Below, in pieces: positions 60,387-62,020 of a stretch of 64,000 bases of DNA. The notes beneath the pieces are model-generated. The model did not search any database and was not told the origin of the DNA. It worked only from the letters and a program-made list of their open reading frames with translations. The position numbers were made by a program, and so were the translations under genes. This DNA comes from Nitrospirota bacterium. Lineage in GTDB: Bacteria; Nitrospirota; UBA9217. Location of the stretch: positions 128,001 through 192,000 of the forward strand of contig CAVUHW010000020.1 in NCBI GenBank assembly GCA_963741205.1, in the 5' to 3' direction. Each line of letters starts with the position of its first letter. The first letter of the stretch is position 1.

Positions 60387-61553
60387 TTACCTGGCTTCTT
60401 CGGATCTTCTCTTCCCGGATCGCCTCTCTTTTCCGGTTCTTCGCTCGGGTCCCTTGCGACCGGGGTCACGTAACCTTCTTCGATCGGCGAATGATCTTCG
60501 ATCAATCCGTGACCTGCGTTCTTTCTGCAGAAGGTCAAAAAGGTAGTCGAGCATCTCTTTCCGCTTTTCCAGGAGGAGGTCTTTGTGGGTCGTTTCGGCC
60601 AAGGCCGGCGCCGTCTTCAACTCGAAGCGATAATCCGATATGAGTGAGATGAGAACCTCTTCAATCCGTGTGAAGAACCCTGCGTCATTGTCCGTACCCT
60701 TGTCCTTGTTGTTTTTCACCTTATCCAGAAGGGCATCGAGCTCGCGAGAGGTTTTTTTCGCGTGGTCGTGAATGGATTCGTACAACCCTGTCAGGGCGTA
60801 TACATCTTCCCTGATAAAACTGGAAATTTCCTTCGACGCTTCCGCGACATCTTTTTGTAAAGTCTCTTGATATTGCTTCGGGATTGGACCACGGGGCAGG
60901 ACGTCCCTGAGACGCTCCCTGAAGTGTTCCTTGACCTCCTCGATCAGGCGCCTTTCTAAGCTCTTCCCGATCTGGACGTTCACGAGGACGACGATCGACG
61001 TTTCGCAGAGTTTTTCGATCTTGCCCAGATTGTCCCTGATATACTGGGCGATGTTGGCCAGTTCCCCAGCCAAGGCGACGCGTCGTTTCGTAAGCGCCTC
61101 AAGCGTGCTTTTGCGGTCCCTGACCATGACCCGAAGCCTGGTCAGCTTGGCCGCCTCATCCCTTTTTTTCGGGTTAAGCCTGCTCATTTCCGCTGCAGCG
61201 GTCGTGATGAACACCCTCGGTTTCTTGAAATCGAGGGTCGCAAGCGAGTGCGCGTGATATTTATATTGCTCCACCGCGGACTTGAGGGCGGGGTCAACAA
61301 AACAGGAATGGCGGAGCACGAAATAAAACATTTTTTCGCGGAAATTCGGCGTCTCTTCGACTCTGTGGAGGCGCTGCTCGAACGCCCTGAGCCTTTGAAT
61401 CAATTCGCCGTACGCTGCAGTGTCGTGCCCTTGTGGTTCTTTTCGGCCCACCTTTTTCGGACTCCGAAGAAATGAGTCAAGATCCTCCTGTGTCGGTGAG
61501 AGTTCAGTGGTCGCGCCGAATCGAAGGCCAAATATGGATCTATCTATAGTCAT
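60387..61553 (-). CDS. Helical hypothetical protein with C-terminal (E/D)RR repeats
   Basis: 388-aa ORF; tail ERRSRIDRRSFADRR...ERRTGKERRS. Confidence 0.65.
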   Translation of the reverse strand: MTIDRSIFGLRFGATTELSPTQEDLDSFLRSPKKVGRKEPQGHDTAAYGELIQRLRAFEQRLHRVEETPNFREKMFYFVLRHSCFVDPALKSAVEQYKYHAHSLATLDFKKPRVFITTAAAEMSRLNPKKRDEAAKLTRLRVMVRDRKSTLEALTKRRVALAGELANIAQYIRDNLGKIEKLCETSIVVLVNVQIGKSLERRLIEEVKEHFRERLRDVLPRGPIPKQYQETLQKDVAEASKEISSFIREDVYALTGLYESIHDHAKKTSRELDALLDKVKNNKDKGTDNDAGFFTRIEEVLISLISDYRFELKTAPALAETTHKDLLLEKRKEMLDYLFDLLQKERRSRIDRRSFADRRRLRDPGRKGPERRTGKERRSGKRRSEEAR

Positions 61554-61591: not shown

Positions 61592-61939
61592 CTATTTCAG
61601 CGTCTGCTCCTGACTACCGGGATCCACAAGCGGGAATCCGGATTTTTTCCAACCCTCCACTCCCCCGCCGAGGACCTTGACGTTACGAAACCCTTTTTCC
61701 AGGTATTCTGCTGCCCGACGGGCAGCACTCGCCTCCTTTGGTCAGCCTCAATAGAAAATGATTTCCTGCTCCCTGGACAGGGACGGGGCCCTGTTCTTAA
61801 ACTCGGCATACGAGGTGCCGCCTTCAAGATGCATTCTCTCGAACTTCTCCTCGTCGTCATAAGCGCAGACGAAAATGGCGGCGCCGGACAGGACCCTTTT
61901 TCTCGCTTCTTCCGGAGGGATTCTTTCAGGTTCGATCAT
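61592..61939 (-). CDS. Rhodanese-domain selenoprotein with two in-frame TGA (UGU motif), 115 aa
   Basis: EIIFY-TGA-G-TGA-PKEASAARRAAEYLEKGFRNVKVLGGGVEGWKKSGFP; hairpin at 61709-61727. Confidence 0.8.
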
Positions 61940-62020
61940 AGTTTATCTCCTCCATGCTTGTCAGAACTCCATAACACCAGTATAACACAGGAGCCCTCGC
62001 CGCTGCTATCGAGTCGCCTG

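Follow-up and report, generated by a model that had tools for sequence, protein, structure and literature searches.

A predicted rhodanese selenoprotein with two in-frame UGA codons and one candidate SECIS hairpin in a Nitrospirota bacterium

The window, meaning the entire 64,000-nucleotide stretch of Nitrospirota DNA under analysis, carries a small predicted rhodanese gene whose reading frame contains two TGA codons (Table 1). With translation table 11, the open reading frame terminates at codon 63. Read through both TGAs, the same frame yields MIEPER...EQEIIFY-U-G-U-PKEASAARRAAEYLEKGFRNVKVLGGGVEGWKKSGFPLVDPGSQEQTLK-TAG, within which the active-site stretch is ...EQEIIFY-U64-G-U66-PKEASAARRAAEYLEKGFRNVKVLGGGVEGWKKSGFPL..., with the codons UGA-GGC-UGA and then PKE. 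The neighbors of the gene in the window are a Nramp transporter and a 388-residue ORF without a Pfam match. The latter lies directly 3′ of the rhodanese gene (60387-61553, minus strand), with many charged residues and an Arg/Lys-rich C-terminus. A scan for promoters and terminators at the rhodanese locus returned weak consensus matches only. Apart from overlapping rhodanese frames, no neighbor family is widespread in the 1.5-kb flanks of the 27 orthologs described below, and the genomic context therefore offers no clue to the function or pathway of the rhodanese.

Table 1. Predicted gene, codons of interest, and candidate signals at the rhodanese locus, in window coordinates
Feature	Position	Strand	Remarks
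Rhodanese selenoprotein gene, predicted	61592..61939	minus	ATG 61939-61937, TAG 61594-61592; 115 residues, single domain
Shine-Dalgarno-like GGAGGAG	61947..61953	minus	7 nt 5′ of ATG, by direct reading
Codon 25 TGC, third Cys (VCAY)	61865..61867	minus	Cys25 invariant, 27/27 orthologs
First in-frame TGA, codon 64	61748..61750	minus	canonical rhodanese catalytic Cys position, by alignment
Second in-frame TGA, codon 66	61742..61744	minus	active-site loop, two residues in
Candidate SECIS hairpin, 8-bp stem and GUC loop	61709..61727	minus	within S-A-A-R-R-A-A codons; minimum-energy fold

The predicted protein is a rhodanese by both profile and fold. Its score with the Pfam Rhodanese model PF00581 is 33.8 bits, where the gathering threshold is 22.2. 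A structure model built on the 27 orthologs has a mean pLDDT of 88.6, and the structures most similar to it are without exception rhodanese domains (E values down to 1.4e-6, TM 0.72-0.73), with GlpE (1gmx, TM 0.73) and BH2092 (3nhv, TM 0.72) at the top. GlpE, BH2092, and other solved single-domain rhodaneses share the fold predicted here, their active-site strand-loop-helix aligns with that of the model, and the active-site loop of BH2092 is equal in length. Codon 64 occupies the place of the catalytic Cys in alignments to solved chains, namely that of FYCGGGFR in 6mxv and of YCWGPACNG in 3o3w. Judged from these alignments, codon 64 is the catalytic, persulfide-carrying position of the rhodanese. 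A preliminary description of this DNA had placed a TGA at the rhodanese catalytic Cys, and the profile score together with the alignment to 6mxv and 3o3w bears this out.

The active site nevertheless departs from that of its solved relatives. Solved single-domain rhodaneses use one Cys, whereas the window protein carries two UGA positions. The rhodanese CX5R/T cradle is usually closed by a basic residue, and in the alignment the loop of the window protein exceeds that of 6mxv by two residues and has no basic residue at the cradle end. In the secondary structure of the model, the strand of residues 21-25 ends at Cys25, and the active-site strand is formed by residues 59-63. We take these two strands to be neighbors in the rhodanese strand order. 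On this view, Cys25 probably sits on the strand next to the active site, near U64 and U66.

Orthologs were sought with whole-genome searches that read through stop codons, covering 61 relatives, then 64 genomes of the whole order, and then a 401-genome sample of the phylum. At a threshold of E ≤ 1e-15, these searches gave 27 orthologs, the window's own gene included, and one degenerate paralog. Across the phylum sample, the position of codon 66 is TGA in all 27 orthologs and Cys in none, and the position of codon 64 is TGA in 12 and TGC or TGT (Cys) in 15. The degenerate paralog (L068, G002:C2:330099-330311) is a second rhodanese copy that reads FY-TGA-P-TAA-TKKASAAARVAEY, in which TAA replaces the invariant Sec codon; it is probably a pseudogene.

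A scan of a collection of species-representative genomes confirmed 241 relatives. Among the best 80 of these 241, a set that overlaps the 27 orthologs and is not independent of them, the second position is TGA in every gene (80/80), with 11 genes of UxU and 69 of CxU form. The nearest relatives among the same best 80 are labeled uncultured Nitrospirota, and the UxU genes comprise eight loci labeled Nitrospirota and three labeled Thermodesulfobacteriota or delta-proteobacterial. Members of the family in the genome collection are also labeled Thermodesulfobacteriota, anammox Planctomycetota, and a few others. The UxU motif had been described as rare, a characterization that, within this clade, does not survive its presence in 12 of the 27 orthologs of the phylum sample and in 11 of the best 80 of 241 relatives.

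The two forms are interspersed on the ortholog phylogeny. On a maximum-likelihood protein tree, in which U is treated as a gap, the UxU/CxU label needs six changes, at least three of which are forced by well-supported branches. Because of these forced changes, UxU would have arisen or reverted repeatedly, and a single inherited accident does not account for it. More distant paralogs carry the interchange further. Three loci carry YCTCPNEASSAR and three others YCT-TGA-PNEASSAR, and in three of these paralogs (L033, L034, L038) the position of the second UGA is Cys. Since Cys and TGA interchange in these paralogs, the second position included, both UGA positions are Cys-equivalent. The preliminary description had likewise assigned both TGAs to Cys positions, and the homologs agree, with Cys at the first position in 15 of the 27 orthologs and at the second in the three distant paralogs. 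The comparison of homologous sequences therefore supports both TGAs as sense codons at Cys-equivalent positions. A distant rhodanese paralog (L033-L037 and similar loci) lies inside open frames of ~330 residues and constitutes a second family with Cys/Sec interchange at +2.

Variation downstream of the two codons has the form expected of a translated gene. Among the orthologs, the mean column entropy 3′ of both UGAs is 0.67 at first codon positions, 0.57 at second, and 1.17 at third, and the frame in this region is therefore coding-like. C follows the second UGA in 61 of the 81 sequences, and G follows the first in all 12 UxU genes.

The candidate SECIS element is a hairpin, UGCUGCCC-GUC-GGGCAGCA, that forms part of the minimum-energy fold. 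Its stem starts 14 nt past the second UGA and 20 nt past the first. Bacterial SECIS elements have a UGA-to-loop spacing of about 16-37 nt (bSECISearch) and a G early in the apical loop. The hairpin of the window is a stem-loop of this kind just 3′ of the UGAs, with a G-first loop whose start lies 22 nt beyond the second UGA and 28 nt beyond the first. These spacings, like the positions of the two TGAs, had been given in the preliminary description and were reproduced on the sequence. The folding energy of the 66-nt stretch is unexceptional (z = -1.36), and the case for the hairpin is therefore one of conservation and not of energy.

Conservation of the hairpin is seen in both its placement and its pairing. 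CxU and UxU genes have the hairpin in the identical place, with a consensus 7-bp stem and a 5-nt loop, N-G-U-N-N; in the window, a closing C-G pair extends this to 8 bp with a GUC loop. The G of the loop is invariant (81/81 sequences). Stem cells are paired in 85.2% of cases in the set of 27 sequences and in 85.5% in the set of 81, compared with 21-61% for controls in which the 3′ partner is slid. Covariation in the stem exceeds 500 of 500 shuffles in both the 27- and 81-sequence sets, as well as all slid controls, with the qualification that the sequences are kin and the shuffle controls overstate the case. The informative pairs of the stem are the three that link one wobble position to another. 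The wobble-wobble pair 27-39 is UA in 48, CG in 18, UG in 4, GC in 2, and AU in 1 of the 81 sequences, and unpaired or other in 6. Pair 24-42 is UA in 26, CG in 13, and GC in 3 of the 81, and unpaired in 33. Because the stem falls within the conserved codons A-A-(R/G)-(R/Q)-A-A, where only the wobble pairs are free, part of the hairpin's conservation, and indeed much of it, is protein constraint. Mean folding energy is -12.5 kcal/mol in 12 UxU sequences (sd 2.8) and -10.1 kcal/mol in 69 CxU sequences (sd 2.4), these again being kin.

No second conserved hairpin was seen in the 72 nt aligned, so both UGAs, if recoded, share one element. The claim that a single SECIS recodes two UGAs is supported by comparison in two of its parts, namely that both TGAs are sense codons and that the hairpin is the sole candidate; its third part, Sec at both codons, is less secure and depends on which tRNA reads them.

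The source genome encodes the machinery for Sec insertion. The assembly is a draft in 50 contigs, 84% complete with 4.9% contamination, and selA, selB, selC, and selD are all present above their cut-offs, as the reading in the preliminary description requires. Genes for selA (531.1 bits) and selB (371.6 bits) are adjacent, selD scores 352.4 bits and has an in-frame TGA of its own, and the canonical selC (63.5 bits) has the anticodon UCA and discriminator G. The selA gene is split over two frames near C26:86275, with positions 1-369 in one and 374-454 in the other (loci L009 and L017; C26:85156-88560), and the frame of positions 1-369 continues open into selB. The break may reflect an indel in the assembly or a true interruption of the gene. 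The in-frame UGA of selD (SSCAG-U-ASKF; L019, C14:97717-98643) is followed by two hairpins, the second of which has a 7-bp stem and, as in the rhodanese, a GUC loop, 26 nt after the UGA; it is a single example.

A second selC-like tRNA is encoded in the same genome at G000:C30:27060-27152 (L002 1498-1592, minus strand). It scores 57.8 bits, is 95 nt long, and has the anticodon UCA, an 8-bp acceptor stem, a discriminator U, and an encoded CCA. The operational definition of tRNAReC in PMC13582414 asks for a discriminator U, an anticodon of UCA or GCA, and 80 nt or more, and this tRNA shows all three. With reference to Vargas-Rodriguez 2018, that paper describes tRNAReC as inserting Cys at UGAs that depend on a SECIS, and it finds tRNAReC to be enriched in genomes carrying UXXU hydrogenases. 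Adjoining the tRNA is the selenium-metabolism gene YedF (L002 721-1416; TIGR03527, 180.3 bits, cut-off 110). By analogy, the tRNAReC-like tRNA could sometimes insert Cys at one or both UGAs of the rhodanese gene. In 4 of the 26 relatives' genomes searched, no tRNA-Sec-family match was found at E ≤ 1e-8. In two UxU genomes that are 86% and 98% complete (L168 in G080 and L169 in G077, respectively), the only tRNA-Sec-family match at this threshold is of the U73 type, and a canonical G73 selC was not found in either with the query used.

The presence of two such tRNAs raises the alternative of dual decoding, in which, with both selC and the tRNAReC-like tRNA present, one or both UGAs would at times yield Cys, for instance when selenium is short. 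The product would be a mixture of CxC, CxU, UxC, and UxU, a reading that overlaps with that of Sec at both codons. It draws on the identity of the second tRNA, on the decoding of SECIS-dependent UGA as Cys and the link to UXXU hydrogenases given in PMC13582414, and on the proximity of the tRNA to YedF. U73-type selC-like tRNAs are also found in 7 of 12 UxU genomes versus 5 of 15 CxU genomes among those of the 27 orthologs, but this association is not significant (Fisher p = 0.26), nor is it when only UCA-type U73 tRNAs are counted (6/12 versus 2/15, Fisher p = 0.087), and only three independent pairs lie on supported branches, which is too few. Dual decoding is further opposed by the second position, which is TGA in all 107 genes (the 27 orthologs plus the best 80 of 241 relatives, two overlapping sets) and thereby speaks for selection that favors Sec as such at this position. 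Dual decoding at the window gene is on these grounds unlikely. The tRNA does, however, weaken the earlier assertion of Sec at both codons, since the genome's own tRNAReC-like tRNA could insert Cys.

A broader form of this idea can be stated for lineages that have both selC and a UCA-type tRNAReC. Flips between Cys and UGA codons would be cheap in such lineages, SelB would deliver either Cys or Sec to the UGAs depending on how much selenium is available, and one SECIS would give rise to four proteoforms. This proposal is speculative and rather improbable. If it were true, the recurrent C/U switching (at least three events) would be an evolutionary trace of selenium buffering.

A decaying gene would explain the locus differently, with translation stopping at the first UGA to leave a 63-residue fragment and the downstream frame persisting as a relic. 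The table 11 ORF does end at codon 63, and the paralog L068 is degenerate. Against this, 27/27 orthologs retain, 3′ of the UGAs, an open frame with coding-like variation and the C-terminal rhodanese motif, UxU occurs in 12 genomes on several branches, and a covarying hairpin is not expected to persist in a relic, which makes decay very improbable.

The letters themselves were compared with contigs from public sequencing runs. A contig from run X1, possibly the source sample, covers 61742-61750 with 0 differences, and one from run X9, of another study, covers the same positions with identical codons and 15 differences elsewhere; the depth of these contigs is only 2.5-3.1. The X9 contig is 94% alike, and that run was guessed to be RNA but is possibly DNA. 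No RNA run carrying the gene is listed among the public runs that match it. The two TGAs of the preliminary description are thus confirmed in both contigs, subject to this depth and to the possible origin of X1. Genome-wide reassignment of TGA is absent. TGA closes 33 of the window's stop-to-stop frames of at least 250 codons, TAA closes 15, and TAG closes 6, and TGA is therefore an ordinary stop here; several rhodanese orthologs also terminate with TGA. A sequencing or assembly error, for which one could cite the draft state of the assembly and the likely frame break in selA, or a reassigned TGA is scarcely credible when two independent contigs have the same letters, TGA is found at both positions in eleven further genomes, the window's long frames end in TGA more often than in any other stop, and homologs carry Cys at both positions and not Trp or Gly.

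The likely explanation of the locus is a U64-G-U66 rhodanese in which both UGAs are decoded as Sec through SelB with one shared hairpin, and in which the active site uses S-Se or Se-Se chemistry. We infer Sec at both sites, the reuse of one SECIS, and the chemistry of the loop from the comparisons above. The product would be a small cytoplasmic protein of the rhodanese fold, with two Sec residues two positions apart in the active-site loop, together with Cys25. During translation, SelB with Sec-tRNA(Sec) would bind the hairpin and decode UGA64. After two translocations, the stem would still be folded, 14 nt beyond the codon in the A site, and another SelB ternary complex could then use the same hairpin to decode UGA66. 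In the mature protein, residue 64 would take up sulfane sulfur or selenium in the manner of other rhodaneses. Residue 66, always Sec in this clade, is the probable partner nucleophile that attacks or bridges residue 64. The bridge would be S-Se in CxU proteins and Se-Se in UxU proteins, and may form during sulfur or selenium transfer or during redox cycling, with Cys25 as a possible third partner of residues 64 and 66.

The gene is a natural test case for the ability of a single bacterial SECIS to act on two UGAs 6 nt apart. If it does so here, the tolerated spacing between UGA and stem would therefore be at least 14-20 nt. Because CxU and UxU orthologs share the hairpin, the clade supplies matched natural controls. 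It is likewise a natural test case for tRNAs of the tRNAReC type as selenium-dependent Cys/Sec switches.

A single SECIS for two UGAs has a parallel in an unrelated protein. PMC13582414 (2026) describes UXXU-type Group 4 [NiFeSe] hydrogenases with two nearby UGAs 5′ of one conserved SECIS, proposes that this single SECIS serves both UGAs, and notes the co-occurrence of tRNAReC. The hydrogenases resemble the window gene in having one hairpin for two UGAs and a tRNAReC-like gene in the genome. They are unlike it in belonging to an unrelated protein family, in the motif (UxxU and not UxU), and in a function of metal ligation where the window protein has a sulfur-transfer loop.

Rhodanese selenoproteins are themselves established. 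The CxU rhodanese is a recognized predicted family, listed as "COG0607 form 2, CxU" (PMC9312934), and a further entry reads "form 3, NF041203, CxU, 1 Sec" (PMC13188914). Zhang and Gladyshev reported a UxU form of a rhodanese-related sulfurtransferase in 2007 from the metagenome of the Olavius algarvensis symbionts (PMC1976440). The UxU rhodanese is therefore not new; the window gene adds little in kind, and the UxU form recurs in related bacteria. The SECIS of the UxU form, its recurrence, and its distribution are not analyzed in PMC1976440, and a full-text literature search for the motif listed no further paper on a bacterial rhodanese. Orthologs of the window gene are present in genomes labeled Olavius Delta 1 and Delta 4 symbionts (L118 and L138). 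No UxU copy was found in these two genomes, each of which has a single CxU copy. The published 2007 protein and the window gene probably share one clade.

The reviews give one Sec for the CxU rhodanese, whereas the first position in the window is also TGA. The best NCBIfam match of the window protein is NF041203 (rhodanese_LYCAU), with 52.5 bits against a cut-off of 115 and over residues 45-104 only. Members of the family have one rhodanese domain, in which Sec comes two residues after a Cys at the canonical site, as in the CxU orthologs. Its motif is C-x-U, both in the model name and in the motif column of PMC13188914; the window protein has U-x-U, and 15 of the 27 orthologs have C-x-U, with equal spacing and the invariant Sec throughout and a difference in the first residue. 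Five further members of the clade, four CxU orthologs among them, score 48.9-69.9 bits against NF041203, all below 115. By these scores, the FY[C/U]xU proteins (~105 residues) are a sister clade outside NF041203 that is without a dedicated model. A second selenoprotein in which a rhodanese domain is listed with two Sec residues is TsoB (NF045694, UxxxxU), which resembles a rhodanese/DsbD fusion. It differs in spacing and architecture, with a model of 572 positions, to which the window protein scores 16.1 bits against a cut-off of 805.

The FY[C/U]xU clade exposes a gap in annotation. Because the whole clade scores below the cut-off, pipelines based on NF041203 probably cut these genes at the first UGA. 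One UxU ortholog of the clade (L063, G239:C35:3520-3837 and beyond) has no stop for at least 50 codons beyond the usual end, and from its sequence the rhodanese appears to be fused to a C-terminal extension.
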